From the UHGV virus genome UHGV-1326493: 11,306 nucleotides of DNA. One strand, written 5' to 3'. Shown here piece after piece: positions 1 through 11,306 of this stretch. The notes beneath the pieces are model-generated. The model was not told the DNA's origin, did no database searches, and saw nothing but the letters and a program-made list of their open reading frames with translations. The translations under genes were made by a program, and so were the position numbers. Source of the stretch: a virus. Numbering within the stretch: the first letter of the stretch is position 1; each line of letters starts with the position of its first letter.

Positions 1-362
1 GTATAAGGGACAGTTACTATGCTCAGGGTTTTTCATTGGCGTTGCTTGGCGAGCCTCTTTTTCAGAATAAGATGGAAGCTTGGATGCATGGCCCTGTTGT
101 CCCTGAGCTTTATCACCGTTATAAACAATATGGTAATGGTGCTATCCCTTCTCCAGAGTCTTTTGATGCTGAAAAATTCAGCGAAGAACAGTTAGAGCTA
201 TTAGAAGAAGTCTGGGATGTTTTTGGGCAATTTTCTGCCTGGAAACTGAGGAACATGACACACGAAGAGTCACCATGGAGATCAAACTATATTGAGGGTG
301 TTGGTGGTTCTGAAATTAGTTCTAAGGAGATGGCAGAGTACTTTGCAACTCGGATTAACTAA
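1..362 (+). CDS. Panacea (DUF4065)-domain protein, 5'-partial; gene starts upstream of the window
   Basis: The frame through nt 3-362 has no stop and reads ...IRDSYYAQGFSLALLGEPLFQNKMEAWMHGPVVPELYHRYKQYG..., matching the YYAQGW..LA..G.PLF...EAW..GPV.PELY signature I recall for DUF4065/Panacea (SocA/GepA-like) proteins. Stop TAA at 360-362. Track ORF 36..362 begins at a TTG internal to this frame. Confidence 0.7.
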   Translation, partial: IRDSYYAQGFSLALLGEPLFQNKMEAWMHGPVVPELYHRYKQYGNGAIPSPESFDAEKFSEEQLELLEEVWDVFGQFSAWKLRNMTHEESPWRSNYIEGVGGSEISSKEMAEYFATRIN

Positions 363-366
363 CGAG

Positions 367-786
367 ATGGCAAGAAAATCTAAAAGGATTATCCCCCCTG
401 CTGAATCTACAGGTAAGTTAAAGTTAGGGCCGCAGTCAGGGGGGAATTCAGATCAAAAGAAACCGAAATTTTCATTCTGTTACATCCAAAGCTCTCACTG
501 CATAACGAAATGCCAAAAAGATGAGAAAGCTGGCTTAGCTGATAAATTATACAGATTAAGTCAACTAACATGGGCAGATATTAAGCAGCAAGGTAGGCAT
601 AAGCTTGGATTTGAGAAGATTGCAAGGGGTGCAATTAAAGCAGGTATCCCCAGTCATATAACGGAAGACGTAGATCATTTCTTGGCTTTTAGATTTGATG
701 ATTTGAAAGCCATGGTTGGTTATCGTCTTGGATCGACATTTTTTGTTATATGGCTTGATAGAGAGTTCAACCTATACAAGCACTAA
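367..786 (+). CDS. hypothetical protein, 139 aa; coupled partner of the Panacea-domain gene, candidate toxin/effector
   Basis: First ATG (367) lies 4 nt after the upstream stop, with only a weak GAG upstream, so translational coupling is likely. Track ORF 292..786 starts at an overlapping TTG. Basic Pro/Gly-rich N-terminus (MARKSKRIIPPAESTGKLKLGPQSGG), then CYIQSSHCITKC, then a ~100-aa domain ending GYRLGSTFFVIWLDREFNLYKH. Stop TAA 784-786, followed directly by a terminator. Confidence 0.55.
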   Translation: MARKSKRIIPPAESTGKLKLGPQSGGNSDQKKPKFSFCYIQSSHCITKCQKDEKAGLADKLYRLSQLTWADIKQQGRHKLGFEKIARGAIKAGIPSHITEDVDHFLAFRFDDLKAMVGYRLGSTFFVIWLDREFNLYKH

Positions 787-790
787 TAAA

Positions 791-814
791 ACCCACCATC
801 AGGTGGGTTTTTTG
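791..814 (+). terminator. intrinsic terminator for the rightward two-gene unit
   Basis: ACCCACC (791-797) / loop ATCA / GGTGGGT (802-808) followed by a T-run through 813, directly after the stop at 784-786. The hairpin also encodes the last codons of mnt (KKPT) on the other strand. Confidence 0.6.
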
Positions 815-1050
815 TACAAATCCTTCAGCGTATCAAACACCATCTTCTTAACAAGTTCGGACTGCTCATCAGCGATGCGTTCCGCATCGTCTCGATAGCC
901 TGAAATTTTGGATTGCCTTGATACAGCATCAGTCACTATCTGAACTAATTCTGAATTAATAGAGCGGCCATTGGATTTGGCTCGCTGTTTTAGTTTTTCC
1001 TTTAATTCGTAAGGTAGCCGCAGATTAAATTGCGGGTCATCTCTTCCCAT
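799..1050 (-). CDS. mnt: Mnt-type ribbon-helix-helix repressor (P22 immI family), 83 aa
   Basis: MGRDDPQFNLRLPYELKEKLKQRAKSNGRSINSELVQIV...GYRDDAERIADEQSELVKKMVFDTLKDLYKKPT matches P22 Mnt as I recall it (ARDDPHFNFRMPMEVREKLKFRAEANGRSMNSELLQIV...DAERLADEQSELVKKMVFDTLKDLYKK). ATG is plus 'cat' at 1048-1050; AAGCGAGG upstream. Confidence 0.9.
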   Translation of the reverse strand: MGRDDPQFNLRLPYELKEKLKQRAKSNGRSINSELVQIVTDAVSRQSKISGYRDDAERIADEQSELVKKMVFDTLKDLYKKPT

Positions 1051-1113
1051 TCTTGATGCCTCGCTTTTGTGAGTGGATCGGCATCTTATTATTTGCTGGT
1101 TGCATCCTCAATA

Positions 1114-1128
1114 AGACCACTGTGGTCT
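1114..1128. promoter_or_regulatory. perfect 15-bp palindrome AGACCACTGTGGTCT, candidate Mnt operator next to a possible mnt promoter
   Basis: Perfect dyad 64-78 bp upstream of the mnt start codon. On the minus strand it is followed by TTGAGG (plus 1106-1111), a 16-nt spacer and TAAGAT (plus 1084-1089), which read as -35/-10 elements. Promoter assignment is by eye only. Confidence 0.4.
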
Positions 1129-1475
1129 CTTTATTTGATTAATAATGCATCACTGCGGCCACGCTGCAGCGATTCCTTGTATCTGGAGCAAATTAAATGA
1201 CAGATATTATAAATAGGAATTGTTATTTAATAATATTTGAAAATGAAAATCATGGACGATAGGAATAAAAGTAGTACTTGTTATTTTTAAGTGACGCATT
1301 AAACGCATAAAGCATATGTCTGTTGATCAAGATTCTTGCTTGTTGTAAAATAATTGTTTTGTTCATGTTGCATAGTTTTAAAGTGAATAGAAGATTATTT
1401 TTCAAAACAATTGCATCTTTGTCTGCAGTCATTCCGTTTTCTTCAATATCTAAATTTTCAAACAGGATGACTAAT

Positions 1476-4208
1476 ATGCCTGATATAACTCCAAATGTTG
1501 TAATTGGGATGCCTTCTCAACTCTTCACTATGGCTCGTTCTTTTAAAGCCGTAGCTAATGGCAAAATTTATATCGGTAAAATTGACACTGACCCTGTAAA
1601 TCCTGAAAACCAGATTCAGGTTTATGTAGAGAATGAAGATGGTTCTCACGTTCCTGTTTCGCAACCAATCGTTATCAATGCTGCTGGATATCCTGTATAT
1701 AACGGACAGATTGCTAAATTCGTTACTGTGAAAGGACACTCTATGGCTGTGTACGATGCTTATGGTACGCAGCAGTTCTATTTTCCGAATGTGCTGAAGT
1801 ATGACCCGGATCAGTTACGGCAGCAATTAGAAGATCCTGATGGTGCTAAAAAATACCCTGAATTACAGATTGCACGATGGCGGGATGATAAAGACGTTCG
1901 CGGGTGGGGGGCGGATGACTCTGGGAATAGAGATTCAACACAGGCTTTTCTTGACGCCGCATCTAGCGCAGGAAATAGTGGTTTGGTTCATGTGCCTTCT
2001 GGTGAGTTTATAGTTGATGCATCGAAAATAGATATTTCACGCTTCTCCGGTGATGGTGTTCTAATCAGTAATGGTGTTCGCATTTCTGTTAATCCGCCGA
2101 TGCAAAGTTTCTCCATTGGACAAAGAAAACTTGCGACCCTGAATTTTGGTGATGATATCAATGCGCCAACTATATATGCGAATGCACAAAATGCATTGCA
2201 GGGAATAGCTTGTGTAAGGCATGAAGGTATTGAGAAGGTTTTTATCACTCAACAGGTTGGAGGTTCTAACTGGGGAACGGACACCCTCACAAGGATCAGT
2301 GAGTGGCACTATACAAGCGATGGTTCGACCCTTTCTGTTGTGACATTTACAGAGCCATTGCCTCTTGGTCACGGTTCAGATCTTTCTGCCACAATAGAGA
2401 ACGGTGAACTATATCTGTTTACAACAACAATTGCTGAGACTGGTTCCTCTCTAGGAGGGAAGGGGTATTCAAAGACAAAATGGAAAGGGGCATCAACATC
2501 TGCTGAAGATATAACTCATTACCGAGTATTTGGTGAGCCGGGTGATAATAATCTGATTAACCTTGCGCAGCGGGCAAGTATTTGTGTATCTAATGATGGG
2601 CGATATGTCATATTAATTGCGACATCAAACGCTGGGACTGGCCGCTTTTTATACGTATATGATCGCAAAGAAGTGGAATCTTCTTCTAACCCAATGAAAG
2701 TTAGACCGATTAATGGTCCTGTTCCACTTGTCCGTGGTAAAGGTCAGTATGGTGCAACGCTTCAGGGTATTACATCAGATAGCAGATATATTTACACAAT
2801 TTGGGGTGGCGTTCCTGCAAGATGCGTAAGGACAGTCCAGATTTATGATATGGGTGGTACGCTAATACGTTCGTTTCCTGTATCACTTGCCGCATCACTT
2901 TATACAGAGACTCAGTTAAATGGTTCTGACTCTAAAATCGGAGTTCCGGTTAGCTTTGAGCCTGAAGGGCTGGCAATAAGAGGTGATGAACTTGTCTGTG
3001 GTGCTATGGATGTATGGAAAAGCGCAGGGGATGTTGTAAGCCATCGTGGTAAAAATTGGGTAAGTACTGTTACTGGTGATAACAAGGGAAATCTTCCGAC
3101 AAACAGGTCTTATTGGTTAAAAACATCGCTTGCAGCGACAAATGGTGAATGGGATTCAGGTGCAACATATAAATCAGGCGATTATACTCGCAGAAATAAG
3201 CATCTGTTTGGAGTAGCAAACCTGTCTGATATTCTTGGCAACCATCCAGTGCATGGCGCAGAATCCGATCCGTATACCGGAACCGCGTATCAATATTATG
3301 CTGGAACTGATATCGCCTTTAACCGTGAGCACGGTTCATTTACTATTGCGATATTTGACGAAGCCATTGGAGAGTATACCAAATCCCTCGAGTTGAATTA
3401 TGGAAATAACCTTAACCTGTTTGATACAGATTACGGCCATGACAATAATTCATGGGTAAGTACGAAAGCAGTATTCGACTCAAACTTTCGAGGTATGCAG
3501 TTCCGTTCTAAAGATGGCAATACTGCGGGTGGTGCTTATATTGATATCCATGCTGCTGATTGTCCATCTGCGGCTGGTGAGTTGATACTTGCCTCTACAG
3601 ATGGAGGTGTCGTCAGACTTAAGCAGGGGAATGTAACAGTATTTTCTGCGACTAAAGATACTACATCGACATGGGCGACGACGACATTAAGGCCAACAAC
3701 TGATAACCAGGTATCACTTGGAAGGTCCGTTAACCGCTTTTCTCAGGTCTACGCAGGGACTGCAACTATAAATACATCTGATGCAACAGAGAAAACGGAA
3801 GTCAGAACTCTTTCCGATAAAGAGCAGGCGGTTGGGTTAGCTCTTGTTGATGAAATTGGTTTTTATCAATGGCTTGATAGTGTAAAAAATAAGGGAGCTG
3901 ATGCCAGACTTCATGCCGGACTTACGGTGCAACGGGCAATGGAAATATTCAGAGAGAATGGACTTGATCCATTTAAATACGGAGCGATCTGCTATGACAG
4001 ATGGGATGCATATACAGATACAGATCCTGCTGTTTATGATGATGAAGGTAACCTTGTTCGTGAGGCTATAACTATTACGCATGAAGCAGGAGAACGCTAT
4101 GCATTCAGAAACGATGAATTACAGTATCTAATGATTGCTGCATTAGGTATACGTCAGAAAAATATTATAAAGAGGATTGAAGAACTGGAAAATAAGTTAA
4201 AAAATTAA
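1476..4208 (+). CDS. tailspike protein: P22-type head-binding N-terminal domain, distinct receptor-binding body, C-terminal intramolecular-chaperone-like domain
   Basis: N-terminus [59 protein letters not shown]...[10 protein letters not shown]...NVLKYDPDQ parallels P22 gp9 (MTDITANVVV...[38 protein letters not shown]...). Start chosen at ATG 1476, with AGGA 8 nt upstream and alignment to gp9 Met1; ATG 1467 is an alternative. The track start at 1323 is a coincidental in-frame extension through AT-rich leader. Stop TAA 4206-4208. Confidence 0.9.
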
Positions 4209-4299
4209 CGGAGTTTAATTAGGTGGTTTGCTGGGAGGGTTGCTTATAATCCTCCACTTTTAATTTGATTGTTAGAATATTATCGCTAATAAAATTACT

Positions 4300-4605
4300 A
4301 TGCATAGTGGTATTTCTATGGACATTACACCAGTTCTTCACGCTCTTTATGCTATAGCTGCACAGACACTGTGTGGCATACTTACCGGGAACTGGGCTTA
4401 CGGGGCGATAGCCGGTTGTGCGTTCTTCATTGCTCGTGAACATACCCAGGCAGAATATCGCTGGATTGAAATGTTCGGGCATGGCAAGCGTATGAATATG
4501 CCGTGGTGGGGAGGGTTTGATCCACGCGTGTGGGATGTGGGAAGTCTGTTGGATTTTTCTTTCCCAATTATCGGATGCTTATTGGTATGGATTCTTGCAT
4601 CGTAG
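4300..4605 (+). CDS. hypothetical small membrane protein (about 95-101 aa, 2-3 predicted hydrophobic helices)
   Basis: ORF reads ...MDITPVLHALYAIAAQTLCGILTGNWAYGAIAGCAFFIAREHTQAEYRWIEMFGHGKRMNMPWWGGFDPRVWDVGSLLDFSFPIIGCLLVWILAS, with hydrophobic stretches at both ends. No convincing SD for ATG 4300 or ATG 4318. A TATAAT hexamer lies at 4245-4250. Sits between the tailspike and sib/attP. Confidence 0.45.
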   Translation: MHSGISMDITPVLHALYAIAAQTLCGILTGNWAYGAIAGCAFFIAREHTQAEYRWIEMFGHGKRMNMPWWGGFDPRVWDVGSLLDFSFPIIGCLLVWILAS

Positions 4606-4703
4606 CGAACACATAATTACCGATGAAACAAAACTGAGGCACACAAAGCTTTGCACTGGATTGCAAGGTTTTGTGCTTCTCTGGAGTGCGACATTTTTTC
4701 ATG

Positions 4704-4747
4704 ACAAAAAATTAGCGCAAGAAGACAATAAATCACCTTGCGCTAAT
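4704..4747 (-). terminator. lambda-type tI terminator within the sib retroregulator region, for the leftward int transcript
   Basis: Minus strand reads GCATTAGCGCAAGGTGATTTATTGTCTTCTTGCGCTAATTTTTTG, i.e. ATTAGCGCAAG...CTTGCGCTAAT stem plus T-run, close to the lambda tI sequence as I recall it. Extended dyad symmetry continues leftward to about 4640. Confidence 0.7.
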
Positions 4748-4750
4748 GCT

Positions 4751-4992
4751 CTGTTACAGGTCACTAATACCATCTAAGTAGTTGATTCATAGTGACTGCA
4801 CATGCTGTGTTTTGCAGTATTATGTAGTCTATTATTTAGACCAAAACCATCATAACACATTGATATTGATGATTTTTCTTGTTTCTCATTCAGCTTTTTT
4901 ATACTAAGTTGGCCTTATAAAAAAGCATTGCTTATCAATTTGTTGCAACGAACAGGTCACTATCAGTCAAAATAAAATCATTATTTGATTTC
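4751..4992. other. attP: complete lambda-type attP (P arm, 15-bp core, P' arm)
   Basis: Core GCTTTTTTATACTAA at 4893-4907 flanked by CA...GTTGG as in lambda attP. Arm-type Int sites are present: P arm CTGTTACAGGTCACTAATAC and TTCATAGTGACTGCA (4751-4800), P' arm ACAGGTCACTATCAGTCAAAATAAAATCATTAT (4952-4984). The P' arm overlaps the 3' end of int, as in lambda. Confidence 0.85.
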
Positions 4993-6051
4993 AATTTTGT
5001 CCCACTCCCTGCCTCTGTCATCACGATACTGTGATGCCATGGTGTCCGACTTATGCCCGAGAAGATGTTGAGCAAATTTATCGCTTATCTGCTTCTCATA
5101 GAGTCTTGCAGACAAACTGCGCAACTCGTGAAAGGTTGGCGGATCCCCTTCGAAGGAAAGACCTGATGCTTTTCGTGCGCGCATAAAATACCTTGATACT
5201 GTGCCGGATGAAAGCGGTTCACGACGAGTAGATGCAATTATGGTTTCTCCGCCAAGAATCTCTTTGCATTTACCAAGTGTTTCCTTCATTGATATCCCGA
5301 GAGCATCAACATGCAATGTTGTAGGGATGGCAATTTTTACGCCTGTTTTGCTTTGCTCGACATAAAGATATCCATCTACGATATCAGACCACTTCATTTC
5401 GCATAAATCACCAACTCTCTGCCCGGTAACAACAGCCAGTTCCATTGCAAGTCTGAGCCAACATGGTGATGATTCTGCTGCTTGATAAATTTTCAGGTAT
5501 TCGTCAGCCGTAAGTCTTGATCTCCTTACCTCTGATTTTGCTGCGCGAGTGGCAGCGACCGGGTTTGTTGTTATATGGCCTTCAGCTATTGCCTCTCGGA
5601 ATGCATCGCTCAGTGTTGATCTGATTAACTTGGCTGACGCCGCCTTGCCCTCGTCTATGTATCCATTGAGCATTGCTGCAATTTCTTTTGTGGTGATGTC
5701 TTCAAGTGGAGCATCAGGCAGACCCCTCCTTATTGCTTTAATTTTGCTCATGTAATTTATGAGTGTCTTCTGCTTGATTCCTCTGTTGGCGAGGATTTTT
5801 TCGTAGCGATCAAGCCATGAATGTAACGTAACAGAATTATCACTGTTGATTCTCGCTGTCAGAGGCTTGTGTTTGTGTCCTGAAAATAACTCAATGTTGG
5901 CCTGTATAGCTTCAGTGATTGCTATCCTCCTGTCTCGGCCTAATCCAAACTCTTTACCCGTCCTTGGGTCCCTGTAGCAGTAATATCCATTGTTTCTTAT
6001 ATAAAGATTAGGGGGTAAATCCCGGTGCTCATGACTTCGCCTTCTTCCCAT
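4981..6051 (-). CDS. int: tyrosine integrase, lambda Int type, 356 aa
   Basis: MGRRRSHEHRDLPPNLYIRNNGYYCYRDPRTGKEFGLGRDRRIAITEAIQANIELF...HELRSLSARLYEKQISDKFAQHLLGHKSDTMASQYRDDRGREWDKIEIK is near-identical to lambda Int as I recall it. R-x-x-R, H-x-x-R, H and the Y in ...MASQYRDD are intact. Overlaps xis by 23 nt. Confidence 0.97.
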   Translation of the reverse strand: MGRRRSHEHRDLPPNLYIRNNGYYCYRDPRTGKEFGLGRDRRIAITEAIQANIELFSGHKHKPLTARINSDNSVTLHSWLDRYEKILANRGIKQKTLINYMSKIKAIRRGLPDAPLEDITTKEIAAMLNGYIDEGKAASAKLIRSTLSDAFREAIAEGHITTNPVAATRAAKSEVRRSRLTADEYLKIYQAAESSPCWLRLAMELAVVTGQRVGDLCEMKWSDIVDGYLYVEQSKTGVKIAIPTTLHVDALGISMKETLGKCKEILGGETIIASTRREPLSSGTVSRYFMRARKASGLSFEGDPPTFHELRSLSARLYEKQISDKFAQHLLGHKSDTMASQYRDDRGREWDKIEIK

Positions 6052-6247
6052 TTTTGATCCTCTTCAAAAGGCTACCTGTTACTGGTCGATTTAAGTCAAC
6101 CTTTACCGCTGATTCGTGGAACAGATACTCTCTTCCATCCTTAACCGGAGGAGGGAATATCCTGCACTCGCGTACCCATCGACGAACTGTTTCAAGGCTT
6201 CTTGGGCGTCGCTGGCGTGCGTTCCACTCCTGAAGTGTCAAGTACAT
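6029..6247 (-). CDS. xis: excisionase, lambda Xis type, 72 aa
   Basis: MYLTLQEWNARQRRPRSLETVRRWVRECRIFPPPVKDGREYLFHESAVKVDLNRP...KKAKS matches lambda Xis. Has the characteristic overlap with the int start. Confidence 0.95.
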   Translation of the reverse strand: MYLTLQEWNARQRRPRSLETVRRWVRECRIFPPPVKDGREYLFHESAVKVDLNRPVTGSLLKRIKNGKKAKS

Positions 6248-6270
6248 CGCAAAGTCTCCGCAATTACACG

Positions 6271-6297
6271 CAAGAAAAAGCCGCCATCAGGCGGCTT
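6271..6297 (-). terminator. hairpin plus T-run on the leftward strand between the 55-aa ORF and xis
   Basis: Minus strand: AAGCCGCC / loop TGAT / GGCGGCTT then TTTCTTG. The stop codon (TGA) of the upstream 55-aa ORF lies in the loop. Confidence 0.4.
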
Positions 6298-6454
6298 GGT
6301 GTTCTTTCAGTTCTTCAATTCGAATATTGGTTACGTCTGCATGTGCTATCTGCGCCCACAGCATCCAGTGGTCATAGCAGTCGTTGATGTTCTCTGCTTC
6401 GATAACTCTGTTGAATGGTTCTCCATTCCATTCACCTGTGACTTGGAAGTGCAT
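6287..6454 (-). CDS. hypothetical protein, 55 aa (not in the track; below its length cutoff)
   Basis: ATG at plus 6452-6454 (complement) is preceded by GGAG at 7-nt spacing. Translation MHFQVTGEWNGEPFNRVIEAENINDCYDHWMLWAQIAHADVTNIRIEELKEHQAA, stop TGA at 6287-6289. Co-directional with the operon. Confidence 0.45.
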   Translation of the reverse strand: MHFQVTGEWNGEPFNRVIEAENINDCYDHWMLWAQIAHADVTNIRIEELKEHQAA

Positions 6455-6526
6455 TTATCATCTCCATAAAACAAAACTCGCCGTAGCGAGTTCAGATAAA
6501 AGAAATCCCCGCGAGTGCGAGGATTG

Positions 6527-6811
6527 TTATTCATTGTCGATATTTACCTTTATCGCGAACACCTTTACCGGTTTATCGCTAAAGTGAGGATGTGTGATTG
6601 TCTTGATTTCATATCCGCCATACGGGACGTCTATTTTGCGACTGGAATCGTCGCGCTTCGGATATCCCCTTGTGATAATCAGGCGGTCATACTCCCGGAA
6701 CATAATTCGCTTATTCCAGTAGTTATTACACAGGCGATACTCTTCCGTTTTCTCGCCTGACTTCATCTGGTCGAAATATTCACCGTTAACTGCCAGTTGA
6801 AGGTTAGCCAC
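6527..6811 (-). CDS. hypothetical protein, possible ASCH/PUA-like beta-barrel (about 94 aa)
   Basis: GTG start (plus 6809-6811) with GGAGG 6 nt upstream; it overlaps the upstream stop as GTGGCTAA. Product ...AVNGEYFDQMKSGEKTEEYRLCNNYWNKRIMFREYDRLIITRGYPKRDD... resembles the EYF..v.sG.KT.E.R opening of ASCH-type domains (weak, from memory). The track's longer form 6527..6883 adds a hydrophobic leader overlapping the upstream gene in another frame. Confidence 0.5.
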   Translation of the reverse strand: MANLQLAVNGEYFDQMKSGEKTEEYRLCNNYWNKRIMFREYDRLIITRGYPKRDDSSRKIDVPYGGYEIKTITHPHFSDKPVKVFAIKVNIDNE

Positions 6812-7094
6812 GGTTAACCTCCAGTTGTGGTGCTGCCTCAAGAGCAGCCCTGTAACCAGCAGCATGACCGCGAAAGTTAGCAATTTCTGATAGCCACGCT
6901 TTAATCATGTCCTGAGTTGGTTCCTTCGGCACCATAACCCAACCATCCGGAGTTACCGGAGAGTTGCCAGCCTTGCGCATGGCAATCTCCACGATTTCAA
7001 CCATATCTCCTGGCGGAATTTTGCAATGCTGACCAAAGCGCCTCTGCTGTCTGGCATATTCGAGGATGTGCTCCAGCTTGGTACGATTAATCAT
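6804..7094 (-). CDS. hypothetical protein, 96 aa
   Basis: ATG at 7094 with AAGGGAGA upstream; ATGA start/stop overlap with the upstream gene. No recognisable domain. Confidence 0.6.
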   Translation of the reverse strand: MINRTKLEHILEYARQQRRFGQHCKIPPGDMVEIVEIAMRKAGNSPVTPDGWVMVPKEPTQDMIKAWLSEIANFRGHAAGYRAALEAAPQLEVNRG

Positions 7095-7474
7095 GATTTA
7101 TCTCCCTTAAGCATGGCGGCGCGGCAGGAGTTCCAGCCTCTCACCTCTGCAATAGCGGCAACAGCATCGACCGCGTACATTTTAAGAGGGTTAGGCATTG
7201 GTTTTTCTTCAGGTACTACTGGCACTGGAGGGGCGGCATAAACAGGAATAACGTCCGATTGATCTTTATTGCTTTCATCCGTTAAAGCCCAGAATAATTT
7301 CCCGGCCGGATGTTTGAAAATATAAGCAACTGGTTCTGCTTCCAGCGATGCCTGTGCGATACGAAACACATTGGCAAGCAGGCTGTCTGTAGATTGGTTA
7401 TCGTGCGCCGGGTCGCTCAGGAAACCAGTGATGAATGATTTAATTTCCGCGTTTTCTCTGGTAATAGTGGTCAT
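7091..7474 (-). CDS. hypothetical protein, 127 aa
   Basis: ATG at 7474 with AAGGA upstream; ATGA overlap with the upstream gene. No recognisable domain. Confidence 0.6.
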   Translation of the reverse strand: MTTITRENAEIKSFITGFLSDPAHDNQSTDSLLANVFRIAQASLEAEPVAYIFKHPAGKLFWALTDESNKDQSDVIPVYAAPPVPVVPEEKPMPNPLKMYAVDAVAAIAEVRGWNSCRAAMLKGDKS

Positions 7475-7680
7475 TTGTTAATCCTTAAAACTTTATGCCC
7501 TGGCGCAAAAGCACGTGTTTTGTCTTTGCTTATTCGCCAGCCATCCTTACGTGCCTCTTTTGCACAGCCAGCCCATGACGTACCGATATACTCACCGAAG
7601 TCTGGCGTTTGATATTTACCATTTGTACACTGGCGACAATCACAGTAGAGATGCATGGTGTAACTTGCGGCAATAGCCAT
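7471..7680 (-). CDS. small Cys-rich protein, putative zinc-ribbon (69 aa)
   Basis: Start chosen at the internal ATG (plus 7678-7680) because AAGGAGA lies 7 nt upstream; the track's longer form 7471..7788 has no such signal. Product MAIAASYTMHLYCDCRQCTNGKYQTPDFGEYIGTSWAGCAKEARKDGWR... has a C-x-C-x2-C ... C arrangement. Confidence 0.55.
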   Translation of the reverse strand: MAIAASYTMHLYCDCRQCTNGKYQTPDFGEYIGTSWAGCAKEARKDGWRISKDKTRAFAPGHKVLRINK

Positions 7681-7681
7681 A

Positions 7682-7873
7682 TCAGTCTCCTTTAGTGCGC
7701 AAGTGGTTTTTCCAGCGGTTTTGCGCCGCGCTGCCCTTATCTCGGACTCCCTCTCTGGCAATTCCAGAAAATGAAAACAACACCACACGACGATTGCTAA
7801 CTCTCAACCACTGGCTGGGATAGCAAAGTCTGTATACACGGGAGATAAGCATCTTAGCTTTACGGTTTTTCAT
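7682..7873 (-). CDS. small basic protein, 63 aa; paralogue of the adjacent 58-aa gene
   Basis: Starts MKNRKAK; ATGA overlap with the upstream paralogue. Its 5' end carries the 18-nt repeat GATGAAAAACCGTAAAGC (plus 7857-7874). Confidence 0.5.
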   Translation of the reverse strand: MKNRKAKMLISRVYRLCYPSQWLRVSNRRVVLFSFSGIAREGVRDKGSAAQNRWKNHLRTKGD

Positions 7874-8046
7874 CTTACTGCGTACCCTTTCTTCCGCCTG
7901 TTCTGTGACGCGCTAGGCTTACGCTTTGCGGCAAAAGCCACCTGACCAAATGGATGGAGTACCGCTATCTTATGGTTGCTGATAACCAGCTCCACCACAC
8001 GCACAGGTCGCTGTAAAAAAAGTCGTTTTGCTTTACGGTTTTTCAT
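7870..8046 (-). CDS. small basic protein, 58 aa; paralogue of the adjacent 63-aa gene
   Basis: Internal ATG (plus 8044-8046) preceded by AGGAGAG at 7-nt spacing; starts MKNRKAKRLFLQRPVRVV... The same 18-nt repeat lies at plus 8030-8047. The track's longer form 7870..8088 is unsupported. Confidence 0.5.
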   Translation of the reverse strand: MKNRKAKRLFLQRPVRVVELVISNHKIAVLHPFGQVAFAAKRKPSASQNRRKKGYAVR

Positions 8047-8896
8047 CGTTTTGCTCTCCTGCGTCTCCTTTGATGCGAATGCCAGCAAGCCAGTTTCTTA
8101 TGCCGATATATTCAGCGTTCCTGAAACCGCTTTTTACATATATAAATGGCAAGCGAAGATTGTGACCATTGGCTGCCAGGTAGTCTTTACAACCCTGTTC
8201 GGTGAAACAGCAGGTAACGAATTCATCAATATCTTTCACAGCAACGCGCCGCCATTTTTCTGGTGGCTCTCGAAAGTTTTCATGAAGTAGTTCGAGACGA
8301 CGACTTTGGCGTTTATTGGCTTCATTGCCATCTTCATCAACCCAGACAATCCGGTCATAGTCATAATCAGCATCAACAACAATTTCGCGCTTTTGATACA
8401 CACAAAACATAGGGTCTGACGTTATTCGATTATCCTGTGTTCGAATATTTTCACCGATGATGCCAAACGAATCTGGTGCAGATTTTGTCTGCAACTCTGC
8501 TATGCGCTTACTTCCATCCGAGATAACACCTTCGTAATACTCGCGCTGCTCGTTGAGTTTTGATTTTGTCTCCTCAAGCTCAACACGCAGCTTCCCTACC
8601 GTTAGCGCAATATCCTCGTTCTCCTGGTCACGGCGTTTTATGTATTGCTGGTTTCTTTCCCGTTCATCCAGCAGCGCCTGCACTACTTCAGGGTTGAAAG
8701 CTGCGATATAACGCGCGTTATTCTCTGCGTTTTCCTGTCCATCAAAGCCGGTCCATTTGATAACGTCTTCACATCGTTTATCACCTGGTGTATGCACCGC
8801 ATATGTACCAGTACCCGACGAAATAAATGCGACCCATTCGCCTTGTGTTGCCTGTTTTGCTATCTCACGCAGTGCCTGGTAATTAATTTCGCTCAC
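8033..8896 (-). CDS. Ea22-like early protein, 287 aa
   Basis: GTG start with GGAGG 6 nt upstream. MSEINYQALRE... and ...LDERERNQQYIKRRDQENEDIALTVGKLRVELEETKSKLNEQREYYEGVISDGSKRIAEL... and the ending GIRIKGD... match what I recall of lambda Ea22; the middle and C-terminal half differ. Confidence 0.7.
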   Translation of the reverse strand: MSEINYQALREIAKQATQGEWVAFISSGTGTYAVHTPGDKRCEDVIKWTGFDGQENAENNARYIAAFNPEVVQALLDERERNQQYIKRRDQENEDIALTVGKLRVELEETKSKLNEQREYYEGVISDGSKRIAELQTKSAPDSFGIIGENIRTQDNRITSDPMFCVYQKREIVVDADYDYDRIVWVDEDGNEANKRQSRRLELLHENFREPPEKWRRVAVKDIDEFVTCCFTEQGCKDYLAANGHNLRLPFIYVKSGFRNAEYIGIRNWLAGIRIKGDAGEQNDEKP

Positions 8897-9200
8897 TGGC
8901 TGCCTCCTTTGCTGGGCTTTCTAACTTCTGAGTGGTTGTATCAAACTCAAACAACTTAACCACGTCATCAAACAGGACATAATCGCCATCAGAATCTTCA
9001 GTCATGTCAGCGCCACAATCCTGACCGAACGAGTCACAACCATCCATATCAAGTTCGTATCGCTTGAGTTTTGCGATATTTGATAAATTCAGCGCCAGTA
9101 CAGCAAGGTCATAAACCTCATCAGCGGTATACCCGGCACCATGCCCATACATTTCAATGCGGGATATGATTTCTTCTACCCGTTGTTTTGTGATTGTCAT
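8883..9200 (-). CDS. hypothetical acidic protein, 105 aa
   Basis: ATG at 9200 in ATGA overlap with the upstream gene; its 3' end overlaps the Ea22-like start by 14 nt. Confidence 0.55.
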   Translation of the reverse strand: MTITKQRVEEIISRIEMYGHGAGYTADEVYDLAVLALNLSNIAKLKRYELDMDGCDSFGQDCGADMTEDSDGDYVLFDDVVKLFEFDTTTQKLESPAKEAASERN

Positions 9201-9658
9201 TTTTGCTCACCACTCTGTTCTTCCAGAAAAATACGCATAGCCTCAAGCATCTCTTCGGTGTCATACGGAGACAGCTTGTCACGCAGGATGTGTTCAATGC
9301 TGTTAATGAACTTGCGGATTGCTTTGCGTTCAATTTCAGCCAGGAAAGCATCGGTGGCTGGGGTTTCAGTAACATCATCTTCCCATTCGCTAAACTCCTC
9401 ACGACAAAAGTCATTAAATTCCTTCTCAGATTGCTTAAGCGAGGTATTTTCAGCAGCCATCTTCGCGCATTTAGCCTCAAGGTTATCAATCGTGATTCCA
9501 GCAGAACTACACTCCCGCAACGCCGTTTCCAGTTTTGATTCAAGTTCACCGAACTTACGGACAAGATATTCAGCGTTTGTTTCGTTAACCTTTAAATCTC
9601 GTGGGATGCATTTGCCTTTCAGAAAACCATCCATCTCAATTAGTGACATTTGTTTCAT
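9197..9658 (-). CDS. hypothetical acidic protein, 153 aa
   Basis: Start placed at ATG plus 9656-9658, which forms an ATGA overlap with the stop of the 54-aa ORF upstream. The track's GTG start at 9676 has no SD. Confidence 0.55.
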
Positions 9659-9819
9659 TTCTTCCCACTCCGCCACATCGCATTCAGATATTTGTTTTGA
9701 TTTACTGATGGAAAAGAATTTCTCTTAAGCAATTCCTCTCTCGATGGCATTGGCTTTACGCGTTGGCGAATAATCATTTCTGCCGGAAGAATGCCGGGAT
9801 TGTATGCAAGTCCTCTCAT
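9655..9819 (-). CDS. hypothetical protein, 54 aa (not in the track; below its length cutoff)
   Basis: ATG at plus 9817-9819 overlaps the stop of the upstream gene (ATGA); GGAGAG 5 nt upstream; its own stop overlaps the next start (ATGA). Translation [54 protein letters not shown]. Confidence 0.45.
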
Positions 9820-10106
9820 GATTTACTCTCCACTAACTGGTCAATAGCCATGCTAAGTGACATACCTAAAGTCTCGATATGCTGCTGAATATCCTGTAGC
9901 GTCTGCGCCTGAGATAACAGGATTTCACGGTTGCATAACTCTTTAACCAGATGCTCAAACTTGCTGTAATAACCGATACGGCTTAGTGTTTCTTTCCCTG
10001 CATTCTCGCCTTCTTTGATAATTCCTCTTTCACTAAGAATCAGGTCGTGTTTGGTTCCGGTAATAACGTATTTTCCGAGGTCGATGTTTAGCTTCATTGT
10101 TTTCAT
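9816..10106 (-). CDS. hypothetical protein, 96 aa
   Basis: Start chosen at ATG plus 10104-10106 ([17 protein letters not shown]...) with GAGGAA 6 nt upstream. The track's longer form to 10289 would overlap the upstream gene by about 170 nt. Confidence 0.5.
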
Positions 10107-10116
10107 TGTTAATTCC

Positions 10117-10413
10117 TCAGTCATTACTGATAGCGCCATAGCGTGAGCGGTAATTACGCAGGCGCGGGTCGATATATTCAGGGAAGTGGGTATATGTGGC
10201 TTTGCGGAATGGTCGGATTGATGTCTGGTAAATCCGCTCGCGCTCTTCTTTCTCTGCAAGCCATATACAGTGGCGAAATTCCTTTTCATCTTTCGTTTCC
10301 TGCGGTAGAGACATTATCTGGTCGTAGTTTTTCCTGAATTTATCCAGCACCTCCGATACGGAATTGCCGGAACAGCGGCGCGCGTCATCCGCACCATACA
10401 GAGGCGCTGGCAT
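10117..10413 (-). CDS. hypothetical protein, 98 aa
   Basis: ATG at 10413 with AGGAGA 5 nt upstream; 13 nt after the ssb stop. Confidence 0.6.
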   Translation of the reverse strand: MPAPLYGADDARRCSGNSVSEVLDKFRKNYDQIMSLPQETKDEKEFRHCIWLAEKEERERIYQTSIRPFRKATYTHFPEYIDPRLRNYRSRYGAISND

Positions 10414-10426
10414 GATTTTCTCCTGA

Positions 10427-10942
10427 TTAAATTGCGTGAATAGCGTGACGAGGGAAGGGGAGAGTTACTGGTGCAAAGGGTATATCGTCGTCAAAATCCA
10501 TAGGTGGTTCGCTGTGATTCCCCTGCTGCTGAGATTGCTGTTTTTGTTGCTTACCGTTATTTCGCTGAGGTGAAGACTGTTCATTGCCTCCTTGCTTGCC
10601 ACCAAGCATTTGCATGGTTCCACCAACTCCTACGATAACTTCGGTAGTGAACCGATCCTGTCCGCTTTGATCCTGCCATTTTCTTGTCCGCAATTTGCCT
10701 TCAAGATAAACCTCAGAGCCTTTTCGCAGATATTCGCTGGCAATTTCTGCCAGTTTCCCGCTCATTACCACGCGGTGCCACTCCGTCTGCTCCTTTTGCT
10801 CTCCAGTTTGCTTATCACGCCATTGCTCTGACGTAGCAACTGTAAGGTTTGCAAATGCCGTTCCTGATGGTGAATATCTGATTTCTGGATCATGCCCAAG
10901 GCGACCAATAATGATCACCTTATTTACGCCTCTGCTTGCCAT
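10427..10942 (-). CDS. ssb: single-stranded DNA-binding protein with a 15-residue extension beyond the canonical DDDIPF terminus
   Basis: [23 protein letters not shown]...[68 protein letters not shown]...[11 protein letters not shown] matches E. coli SSB ([23 protein letters not shown]...[52 protein letters not shown]...[11 protein letters not shown]). Here the frame continues [15 protein letters not shown] before TAA. Confidence 0.93.
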
Positions 10943-11306
10943 TTATGCCGCCTGTTTTAGTTCGTTAACTCTGATGTTCATTACCTGAACGCATTTAGCC
11001 TGCGCCTCCTCGTTGCCAGCCATTAATTGCCAGTCACGCTGATAACGCTCGATGAGTTTTTTCTTATCAGTTTCTGTTGACGCATAATCGCTGAAGTCTT
11101 TCAGGATTTGCTCGCAGTCAACCGATGGAGATTTCTGGTTGGCATTTTCTGGTGATGGTTTGTTATATGATGCTGGGATTGCCCATCCCGGCAGCGATGG
11201 AGGGAGCCAGTAAAATCCTGTTCCATCCTTCAGTTTTGCCCCGTGCCATCCCTGCTTTTTATCGAGAGATGTTTGTGCGAAACCTTCCTCAAGGTTATAC
11301 AGATAC
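10943..11306 (-). CDS. 3' portion of a gene running off the window (5'-partial); possibly an ERF-family annealing protein
   Basis: Minus-strand frame is open from the window edge to TAA (plus 10943-10945), which abuts the ssb ATG. C-terminus reads ...SVDCEQILKDFSDYASTETDKKKLIERYQRDWQLMAGNEEAQAKCVQVMNIRVNELKQAA, which resembles my recollection of the P22 Erf C-terminal tail. The family call is weak; the CDS call rests on the long open frame and the coupling. Confidence 0.55.
   Translation of the reverse strand, partial: YLYNLEEGFAQTSLDKKQGWHGAKLKDGTGFYWLPPSLPGWAIPASYNKPSPENANQKSPSVDCEQILKDFSDYASTETDKKKLIERYQRDWQLMAGNEEAQAKCVQVMNIRVNELKQAA

Follow-up and report, generated by a model that had tools for sequence, protein, structure and literature searches.

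A lambda-type attP-int-xis module in the genome of a P22-like phage

A lambda-like block between P22-like flanks

We analyzed a stretch of 11,306 nucleotides from the virus genome UHGV-1326493 (hereafter, the window), in which a lambda-like integration cassette is flanked by P22-like genes. The genes, transcription signals and block boundaries are listed here; the parts of the attachment site are listed in the next section.

799 to 1050, minus strand: Mnt repressor (P22 immI region), left flank; 73.5% amino acid identity to P22 Mnt
1476 to 4208, plus strand: 910-aa tailspike, left flank; P22 gp9-type head-binding domain and C-terminal S74 chaperone
4300 to 4605, plus strand: 101-aa ORF (phrog_1443), left flank; hydrophobic by eye, in the slot of P22 gtrABC
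4638 to 6530: lambda-homologous block (sib/tI, attP, int, xis, orf55 and terminators), from blastn and junction alignments
4704 to 4754, minus strand: tI intrinsic terminator and putative sib retroregulator hairpin; RNA fold with a 12-bp GC-rich stem (4712-4746) and U-run
4981 to 6051, minus strand: int, 356 aa, full-length; 98.3% amino acid identity to lambda Int by protein comparison
6029 to 6247, minus strand: xis, 72 aa, full-length; 97.2% amino acid identity to lambda Xis, PF07825 (Exc family; 7.6e-41)
6260 to 6273, minus strand: predicted cII box of pI, TTGC-N6-TTGC; same as in lambda
6278 to 6297, minus strand: terminator hairpin upstream of xis, from folding; HK97 homology ends here
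6287 to 6454, minus strand: homologue of lambda orf55 (lambdap35; phrog_676); 96.4% amino acid identity by protein comparison
6474 to 6525, minus strand: two tandem terminator-like hairpins, from RNA folding
10117 to 10413, minus strand: Abc2 anti-RecBCD protein, right flank; 90.8% amino acid identity to P22 Abc2

A sequence-only reading of the window had described the flanking modules as P22-like, and the comparisons bear this out: Mnt, the tailspike head-binding domain and Abc2 resemble their P22 counterparts, whereas Int and Xis do not. The head-binding domain (gp9 N-terminus) is 62.8% identical to that of P22, and Pfam matches on the left flank include PF09008 (1.8e-65) and PF11423 (1.4e-18). 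PADLOC and Pfam yielded no function for the 101-aa ORF, which accompanies a lambda-type attP in several P22-like phages. Near-identical prophages carry P22 gp7, gp20 and gp16 genes upstream, and a 99.96%-identical relative has P22_gp7, Inj_translocase and P22_gp16 in that direction. Judged from the flanks of the window and the ejection genes of these near-identical relatives, the genome is P22-like (Lederbergvirus-type).

Window positions 4638-6530 align with lambda (NC_001416) positions 27471-29361 at 96.3% identity, with 64 mismatches and 4 gaps (blastn). Chance is not an issue here, as this is near-identity to a characterized sequence over 1.9 kb. The alignment placed each element of the proposed sib/tI-attP-int-xis cassette, including an intact attP, where the sequence-only reading had located it. 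That reading had also estimated the module junctions at roughly 4610 and 6250-6300. The left estimate is near the actual joint at 4637/4638, but the right one does not mark the end of lambda homology, which extends ~230 bp past the end coordinate proposed for the cassette and stops at 6530/6531, after orf55 and two terminators. The left joint recurs in independent records (JEP4 and the VTB96816v prophage), and lambda, JEP4 and the 20AR0300 prophage all depart from the window right after the tandem hairpins, at 6530/6531. Exact strings spanning the left joint, or the P arm, core and P' arm, had no match in IMG/VR or JGI metagenomes. In the flanks, the only similarity to lambda is in short patches (8499-8683 and close by), and the core is not bordered by host DNA.

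An intact attP with full-length int and xis

Alignment to lambda, together with consensus matching, resolved the attachment site into the following parts.

4748 to 4985: complete attP, about -152 to +85 around the core center at 4900; alignment to lambda attP
4759 to 4768, plus strand: arm-type Int site P1, GGTCACTAAT; placed by identity to lambda
4775 to 4787, minus strand: IHF site H1, AATCAACTACTTA; exact match to WATCAANNNNTTR
4789 to 4798, minus strand: arm-type Int site P2, CAGTCACTAT; exact consensus match, within lambda 'int 2'
4800 to 4834, plus strand: candidate Xis sites X1, X1.5 and X2 and overlapping Fis site F; alignment to lambda
4804 to 4882: diverged P-arm segment, unlike lambda at 21 of 79 positions; alignment to lambda
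4853 to 4865, minus strand: IHF site H2, TATCAATGTGTTA, within the diverged patch; exact match to WATCAANNNNTTR, changes only at NNNN positions
4891 to 4911: core region C-O-C'; inverted core-type Int sites C (CAGCTTTTT, 4891-4899) and C' (CAACTTAGT, 4903-4911, minus strand) flank the common core
4933 to 4945, plus strand: IHF site H', TATCAATTTGTTG; exact match to WATCAANNNNTTR, 0 differences from lambda
4954 to 4985, plus strand: arm-type Int sites P'1 (AGGTCACTAT), P'2 (CAGTCAAAAT) and P'3 (AAAATCATTATT); same as in lambda, overlapping the 3' end of int

The 15-bp lambda core GCTTTTTTATACTAA occurs once in the window, at 4893-4907, and is the same in lambda, attL, attR and attB. We take -152 and +85 to be the limits of attP, as in lambda. 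P1, the core, H' and the P' arm show 0 differences from lambda. The feature annotated as 'int 1' in lambda maps to 4752-4771, also with 0 differences, and contains P1, which is invariant across 60 P-arm variants. P'1 and P'2 match the arm-type consensus with two mismatches each, and P'3 was placed by identity to lambda; the coordinates of 'int 4' in the lambda record do not overlap the P'1-3 repeats and so were not usable for scoring the P' arm. The candidate X1, X1.5, X2 and F sites, placed by eye, presumably correspond to the lambda sites of those names. By eye, X1 and X2 each differ from lambda at about two positions and the Fis consensus is kept; most positions of the X1-X2/F region are conserved across the 60 variants.

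The IHF consensus has five exact matches in the window, against 0.88 expected, and three of them are H1, H2 and H'. The arm-type motif was found 13 times in the window, against 8.9 expected, which is not significant by count, and core-type motif statistics alone are likewise not significant. We therefore base the identification of attP on homology and position.

The recombination proteins are encoded by intact frames, the start of int overlapping xis. Int differs from lambda Int by six substitutions (R9H, S89N, H164P, A245T, I248V and D260G) and keeps the R-K-H-R-H-Y residues (R212, K235, H308, R311, H333 and Y342). It matches the Pfam families of the lambda arm-binding domain (PF09003; 1.5e-32) and the catalytic domain (PF00589; 2e-40), and we saw no loss-of-function changes in int. 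Xis carries two substitutions, G59S and R65K.

Two other assignments were considered and rejected. A P22-type module does not fit an Int only 20% identical to that of P22 over 159 aa (E = 0.003), and Xis had no match to P22 Xis at E<=10. HK022-type specificity was discarded on identity to HK022 of only 80-87%; Int residues 99, 282, 283, 287 and 319, which we take to be those governing specificity, are lambda-type here.

Transcription signals around the module

On the minus strand, tI/sib folds at -25.4 kcal/mol (z = -3.8) with the architecture seen in lambda, including an extended stem on read-through. The tI stem matches lambda fully and differences are confined to the loop. The HK97 record labels the homologous stretch 'sib retroregulation site'; an Rfam scan found no curated RNA family. 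At the other end of the module, we take the TTGC-N6-TTGC box to be that of pI, as in lambda, and the 100 nt around it include 2 positions unlike lambda. Given this identity with lambda, the module is probably regulated by pI, tI and sib. The gene for the cII/C1 activator and pL would lie outside the window, judging from relatives. One 100%-identical relative has N, cIII, kil and sieB upstream, which make up an N-antiterminated pL operon.

The interval 6250-6300 coincides with mosaic boundaries other than the end of lambda homology: similarity to HK97 stops at ~6295, and a nearly P22-identical island of 64 bp begins at 6271 (6271-6334; 96.9% identity to P22 23392-23455). Both the HK97 and P22 records carry terminator annotations at sites homologous to the 6278-6297 hairpin.

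Relatives are integrated at the lambda attachment site

BOP'- and POB'-type junctions are present in host assemblies, where near-identical prophages occupy the lambda attB, divided at the core; their attR adjoins ybhB-bioA (99.96%) and their attL adjoins ybhC (99.97-100%). The Escherichia coli chromosome OZ039484.1 (GCA_964044195.1) holds both ends of what is essentially the same phage. At its attR, sequence corresponding to window 14-4911 (99.96%) is followed by B'-ybhB-bioA; at its attL, ybhC-B precedes sequence corresponding to window 4893-8683 (99.97%), beyond which other ea genes stand in place of window 8684-9670. The inferred attB lies between ybhC and ybhB-bioA and reads ...GAAGCCT-core-CTTGAGCG.... 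The exact Int protein was found in 17 contigs, and the ten listed are all attL ends beside ybhC. Long contigs that encode the exact 101-aa ORF represent attR ends, adjoining ybhB-bioA. That near-identical prophages have natural attL and attR sites in the lambda attB indicates that the module works in nature, as seen in these relatives.

The sequence-only reading had taken the presence of both arms to mean that the window comes from virion, replicative or excised DNA. The end of a single prophage is indeed ruled out by an intact attP, but none of those states is thereby proved, because tandem lysogens hold an attP between copies. The window could be part of a tandem (poly)lysogen chromosome rather than free phage DNA, its attP marking where two prophage copies join head to tail at attB. 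Such an arrangement exists: in E. coli ExPEC XM, the order is ybhC, attL, a complete P22-like prophage, attP, a second copy, attR and ybhB-bioA, with the second copy internally deleted and tailspike, attP and int contiguous. The ET220 chromosome also has a contiguous attP, and the exact Int and exact 101-aa ORF are found mainly in integrated form. However, such cases are rare among the 5,426 E. coli genomes searched; no place matched 80% or more of a core-spanning query, and only 7 matches crossed the core among the 30 best. Circularly permuted virion DNA of P22-like phages assembles with attP intact, as in the circular JEP4 record, and a short metagenome contig carries an intact attP of the same lineage (P arm-core-P'). 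On balance, we consider a tandem lysogen unlikely as the source of the window.

Coexistence of prophages bears on a further alternative, in which the cassette is a defunct remnant or an assembly artifact joining P22-like and lambda-like prophages. Lambdoid prophages that share this module often occupy the same genome (a median of 2 places per genome and up to 8), which could mislead an assembler, and one Logan contig (the 100%-identical relative with N and cIII) stops exactly at the core. This explanation is nonetheless extremely improbable. Independent records show the same joints (4637/4638 in JEP4 and the VTB96816v prophage, and P arm-core-P' in the metagenome contig), the genes have intact frames, the Int and IHF binding sites are conserved, and one finished chromosome contains both the attL and the attR products of this exact lineage.

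Variation in the P arm

The patch at 4804-4882 is polymorphic in the population, with 59 variants among 101 instances, and the distance between the window and lambda is typical of that population. The TTGATA core of H2 is conserved in this population. The divergence seen in this part of the P arm reflects ordinary population polymorphism. We also considered whether the patch marks another att specificity or a hybrid att, and rejected the idea: the core is unchanged, the contact motifs are kept, and most lambda-type att sites are separated by a comparable level of divergence.

With 21 of 79 positions in the X1-X2/F and H2 region unlike lambda, excision could be more or less efficient than in lambda, or differently regulated. 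On one reading, 4804-4882 would be a functionally distinct attP variant with altered directionality control by Xis, Fis or IHF, as opposed to a product of neutral drift. The concentration of differences (21 in 79 bp, versus 0 in adjacent sites) speaks for such a variant, and across the population the patch varies far more than the P' arm (mean of 15.3 versus 4.3 differences per 101 nt). The variable positions, however, sit between the protein-contact motifs, and little or no variation was seen across 60 variants in P1, H1, P2, the H2 core and most of X1 and X2. The DNA-binding part of Xis is unchanged, substitutions being solely at residues 59 and 65, and the same variant is seen in integrated and excised forms alike. 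We thus regard a functionally distinct variant as quite unlikely, and ordinary polymorphism as the explanation of the patch.

A related and decidedly improbable proposal is that 4804-4882 is under diversifying selection among lambda-att elements, for example by tuning Xis/Fis/IHF directionality or by reducing homologous exchange. If this were true, selection could curb exchange between co-resident prophages competing for one attB, and the P-arm variant of the window would be measurably unlike that of lambda in behavior.

A proposed role for the module

These observations make it very likely that the window contains a complete and functional lambda site-specific recombination module, located in the standard lambdoid slot of a P22-like podovirus, with the tail genes on one side and the early-left (ea) genes on the other. 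By analogy with lambda, a cII/C1-type activator would fire pI after infection through the box at 6260-6273, and the int transcript would end at tI (4704-4754) and be stable. Int, with IHF at H1, H2 and H', would assemble on attP (4748-4985) and carry out recombination between the 15-bp core and the attB that separates ybhC from ybhB-bioA. Transcripts from pL, antiterminated by N, would extend past tI and fold into the sib site cut by RNase III, leading to destruction of int mRNA while attP is intact. In the prophage, sib would be parted from int, and induction would yield both Int and Xis; Xis and Fis, bound at X1-X2/F, would then direct excision.

For annotation, this implies that the present P22-like phage should lysogenize at the lambda attB, adjacent to bio and gal. 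Use of this site predicts where the prophage lies and that it competes with lambda-type phages for the site and, in combination with headful packaging, the host genes it is likely to transduce. The module very likely reached P22-like phages through ordinary lambdoid recombination, with its boundaries marked by terminator hairpins. Exchange of lambdoid modules is common and documented, and a lambda module in a P22-like phage is an already known instance of it. The locus is a clean textbook case of lambdoid mosaicism in which terminator hairpins mark the points of exchange, and it has little import beyond correct annotation.

Related phages and distribution

Lambda itself shares with the window an identical core, P1, H', P' arm, tI stem and pI box, as well as the ybhC/ybhB-bioA attB target. 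It differs in being a siphovirus, whereas the phage described here is a P22-like podovirus, at 21 of the 79 positions of the diverged P-arm patch, in the six Int and two Xis residues, and in its flanks: its b-region (ea59 side) and ea8.5 sequences are replaced in the window.

P22 (NC_002371; gtr-attP-int-xis at about 18.2-22.7 kb) uses the same slot, between tailspike/conversion genes and ea genes, and the orientation and logic of the region also agree. Its flanks are homologous to those of the window (Mnt, the gp9 N-terminus, Abc2 and the 64-bp terminator island), but its recombination module is not the same, and the attP core annotated in P22 does not correspond to the lambda core found here. 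P22 targets a tRNA gene.

Among deposited phages, each covers 32% or less of the window. JEP4 (MT740315, Lederbergvirus) has the same gene order (mnt, head-binding tailspike, ~100-aa ORF, lambda-type attP, int, xis) and shares the left joint at 4637/4638 and the right breakpoint at 6530/6531. Its tailspike body and ea genes differ, and about 105-130 bp are inserted in JEP4 between window positions 4681 and 4702.

The temperate P22-like coliphage phiHS3 is reported to integrate upstream of ybhC and to excise both spontaneously and on mitomycin C induction (bioRxiv 10.64898/2026.05.19.726188), which provides experimental evidence for a P22-like phage using the ybhC-side chromosomal site. Its conversion slot holds an O-antigen ligase-like gene, in contrast to the 101-aa ORF here.

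The module is widespread in P22-like phages, and the same layout was found in half of the sampled IMG/VR loci with a lambda-type P arm (32 of 64). Huey (PQ850609) and Gally (OV696608) appear similar, judging from database hits alone, which list a tail spike, an integrase and an excisionase.

A lambda-type integration module in a P22-like genome

A megablast search against 50,697 phage records aligned window 4638–6530 with lambda (NC_001416) 27471–29361 at 96.3% identity, with 64 mismatches and four gap openings. The aligned block contains three genes:

4981–6051 (−): int, 356-aa integrase (ORF listing and direct reading)
6029–6247 (−): xis, 72-aa excisionase overlapping int (ORF listing and direct reading)
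6287–6454: homologue of lambdap35 (orf55), a small lambda ORF, 96.4% identical

By Pfam, the int product combines a lambda arm-binding domain with a tyrosine-recombinase catalytic domain, and the xis product belongs to the Exc family. Int differs from lambda Int by six substitutions (R9H, S89N, H164P, A245T, I248V and D260G) and retains R212, K235, H308, R311, H333 and Y342, while Xis differs from its lambda counterpart by G59S and R65K. A sequence-only reading had placed a lambda-type sib/tI–attP–int–xis cassette at 4640–6300. This identity, with int, xis and the core located as described there, establishes that the cassette is real, but the lambda-like block runs ~230 bp further at its right end.

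The flanks contain these genes:

36–786 (+): gene with a SocA/Panacea antitoxin domain (PF13274, 5.5e-18), then a phrog_8366 gene of 139 aa, matched weakly by PADLOC NsnC (4e-6); both lie in the slot of P22 sieA and orf59a
left flank: mnt, with Arc and Repressor_Mnt domains
1476–4208 (+): 910-aa tailspike that begins with a head-binding domain of the P22 type and ends with a Peptidase_S74 intramolecular chaperone
4300–4605: 101-aa ORF (phrog_1443), hydrophobic by eye
right flank: ea-type genes (Ead/Ea22, DUF2737), Abc2 anti-RecBCD and SSB

Amino-acid identity to P22 is 73.5% for Mnt, 62.8% for tailspike residues 1–133 and 90.8% for Abc2. By contrast, P22 Int matches the window's Int at 20% over 159 residues only (E = 0.003), and no similarity was found between the two Xis proteins. 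P22 has the same gene order as the window – mnt, tailspike, conversion genes, attP, int, xis, then ea genes – and the lambda module therefore fills a homologous slot. Homologues of P22 gp7, gp20 and gp16 lie upstream in a 99.96%-identical relative. The lambda identity of the block, together with the P22-like Mnt, tailspike N-terminus and Abc2, bears out the earlier identification of a lambda-type module with intact attP in a P22-like genome.

Several flanking genes depart from P22. The tailspike shows no relationship to P22 gp9 in its body. The protein has sub-threshold endosialidase and CBM_5_12 matches and shares 98.9% identity with tailspikes of prophages in E. coli TUM10008 and EC24. The 101-aa ORF, which had neither a Pfam nor a PADLOC match, fills the position that the gtrABC conversion genes have in P22, lies between terminator-like hairpins at 4234–4255 and 4671–4691 (+), and is moron-like. 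At 6 of the 86 IMG/VR loci a homologue lies upstream of the lambda-type P arm, and the ORF is likewise paired with a lambda-type attP in the Lederbergvirus JEP4 and the E. coli VTB96816v prophage. The Panacea-domain and phrog_8366 genes may form a toxin–antitoxin or defence pair.

Unlike P22, the window lacks arc, sar and ant between mnt and the tailspike (799–1476), and its Mnt repressor appears orphaned; in some relatives, VTB96816v among them, this interval includes additional Arc-family genes and an antirepressor. Bases 1–13 (GTATAAGGGACAG) are wholly unlike four relatives that agree with one another at this position (TACAAAAGCTTGT) and, from base 14 on, are 93–99.96% identical to the window. 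Either a mosaic joint falls within the Panacea-domain gene here, or the edge of the window or contig is anomalous.

Module boundaries

The left junction with lambda falls at 4637/4638 (...GAAACAAAACTG|AGGCACACAAAGCTT). Because JEP4 and the VTB96816v prophage carry the identical joint, it is a feature of the lineage rather than private to the window. In JEP4, the E. coli UTAK-1 prophage and one Logan contig (L002 5263–5390; L006; L012), an extra 105–130 bp, in which RefSeq annotates a truncated hypothetical gene, separates the lambda-like 4638–4681 from the tI hairpin (window 4681–4702).

On the right, lambda, JEP4 and the E. coli 20AR0300 prophage part from the window and from one another at 6530/6531, just after two tandem terminator hairpins (6474–6525). 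A junction at 6250–6300, as first proposed, holds as a mosaic boundary for some comparisons: HK97 homology breaks at ~6295, within a terminator hairpin (6278–6297), and a 64-bp island (6271–6334) is 96.9% identical to P22 23392–23455, around the annotated aI terminator. It does not hold for lambda, whose homology runs to 6530. The island is common to lambda and P22 despite their unrelated adjacent int and xis, and is plausibly a conserved boundary sequence for module exchange.

attP structure and regulatory signals

The elements of the attachment site and its associated signals were observed directly in the sequence and its predicted structure:

4704–4754 (−, transcribed strand): tI hairpin, 12-bp stem and U-run, with an extended stem upon read-through
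4775–4787: H1 IHF site, exact consensus match
4853–4865: H2 IHF site, exact consensus match
4893–4907: lambda core GCTTTTTTATACTAA, single copy in the window
4933–4945: H' IHF site, exact consensus match
6260–6273: pI cII box TTGCGTGTAATTGC, identical to lambda

We transferred the Int-binding features annotated in the lambda record onto the window and counted differences. There were none in the P1 region, the 15-bp core or the stretch from the core through the end of the P' arm, one in the P2 region, and two in the 34-bp core feature, both outside C, O and C'. A motif scan found P2 to be an exact arm-type consensus and P'1 and P'2 to have two mismatches each, and recovered C and C' as core-type sites. 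Counts of these short motifs are not statistically remarkable alone; the sites are significant because of their position and lambda identity. Exact IHF consensus matches number five in the window versus 0.88 expected, three of them at the H1, H2 and H' positions. The 'int 4' feature of the lambda record (27814–27854, +83 to +123 from the core centre) does not overlap the P'1–P'3 arm-type repeats (+54 to +85), which looks like a coordinate slip.

The tI hairpin folds at −25.4 kcal/mol (z = −3.8) with the same architecture as in lambda, and the homologous stretch of HK97 is annotated as a sib retroregulation site. Around the pI cII box, 2 bases in 100 differ from lambda. An Rfam scan returned no family covering the tI/sib, attP or pI elements.

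From identity with lambda we infer promoter and terminator activity, RNase III processing and protein binding, and thus the working of the whole module. Int derived from pI would be protected because its transcript ends at tI, and Int and IHF would assemble on attP for recombination with attB. In read-through RNA from pL the sib RNase III site would fold, and this RNA would be degraded while attP is intact; integration would separate sib from int, so that induction would yield Int and Xis, with Xis and Fis directing excision. The N-antiterminated pL operon that such a scheme needs (N, cIII, kil, sieB) lies upstream in L022, a 100%-identical Logan contig (SRR17000998_2343).

Divergence within the P arm

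Between P2 and the core, at 4804–4882, the window departs from lambda at 21 of 79 positions (26.6%, versus about 2–4% elsewhere). We collected 86 IMG/VR loci whose P2-to-core arm is lambda-type; with other loci, these gave 59 distinct 101-nt variants among 101 instances. As variants typically differ from the window and from lambda at 18–25 positions, the window–lambda distance of 24 is ordinary. Across 60 variants, conservation tracks known protein contacts: P1, H1, P2, most of X1/X2 and the TTGATA core of H2 vary little or not at all, and the variable positions are the spacers separating contact motifs. Mean divergence was 15.3 differences per 101 nt for the P arm (57 variants) and 4.3 for the P' arm (6 variants, a small and collection-biased sample). 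Our reading is that the bent spacer DNA here is under relaxed constraint. The patch may instead mark a functional difference, though nothing in the data calls for one.

Recombined forms in host genomes

When a core-spanning probe was searched against 5,426 complete E. coli genomes, the majority of the matches listed started exactly at the core. In 20AR0300 the order is ybhC–B–core–P'–int, and P' is the GTTGGCC variant found in the window; in VTB96816v and UTAK-1 it is tailspike–P–core–B'–ybhB–bioA. Both host junctions, which had been suggested as a check, thus occur in E. coli, and the attB site is inferred to be the canonical lambda site. Exact-protein look-up found the window's Int in 17 contigs, of which the 10 shown are all attL ends adjoining ybhC, while the four longer contigs with the exact 101-aa ORF that continue beyond the core are all attR ends adjoining ybhB–bioA.

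E. coli chromosome OZ039484.1 has both prophage ends, about 40 kb apart. Its attR end matches window 14–4911 at 99.96% with two mismatches, one being the first post-core base, where P' switches to B'; its attL end matches 4893–8683 at 99.97%. The next ~1 kb of the window (8684–9670; phrog_3126 and phrog_614 ea genes) is missing from this otherwise 99.97%-identical prophage and present in L022, a very recent module swap in the ea region.

L022 is 100% identical to window 4893–11306, and its end coincides exactly with base 1 of the 15-bp core, which suggests an assembly-graph branch from coexisting att forms or from several lambda-att elements in the sample. A 1.4-kb metagenome contig (L014) has the intact attP form: tailspike end, 101-aa ORF, P arm, core, P' and the 3' end of int. 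The attP, attL and attR forms of the lineage are therefore all found in nature, and these recombination products in relatives are strong evidence for an active module.

The sequence-only reading had also taken intact attP to mean virion, replicative or excised DNA. The window is indeed not a prophage end, but tandem lysogens carry attP too, so free phage DNA does not follow. E. coli ExPEC XM (NZ_CP025328, 806–868 kb) has two head-to-tail P22-like prophage copies at lambda attB, with a contiguous tailspike–attP–int joint, attP intact, between them; an internal deletion in the second copy has removed the replication-to-ejection genes. ET220 likewise has a contiguous attP in its chromosome. A tandem lysogen, with attP joining two prophages, is nevertheless the less likely source of the window, because few of the matches listed from the 5,426 genomes cross the core.

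Known precedents

That lambdoid phages, P22 among them, exchange modules is textbook knowledge, and a lambda module in a P22-like phage is an already known, ordinary arrangement. The same layout has been deposited for JEP4; for Huey and Gally, which were compared at the level of their database matches, the products listed include tail spike, integrase and excisionase. Huey has been described as a temperate Lederbergvirus on K-12 (PMC11990801), and integration upstream of ybhC and excision are described for the P22-like coliphage phiHS3 in a 2026 preprint (bioRxiv 10.64898/2026.05.19.726188). A P22-type head-binding tailspike is encoded at 32 of the 64 IMG/VR loci that combine a lambda-type P arm with sufficient upstream sequence.
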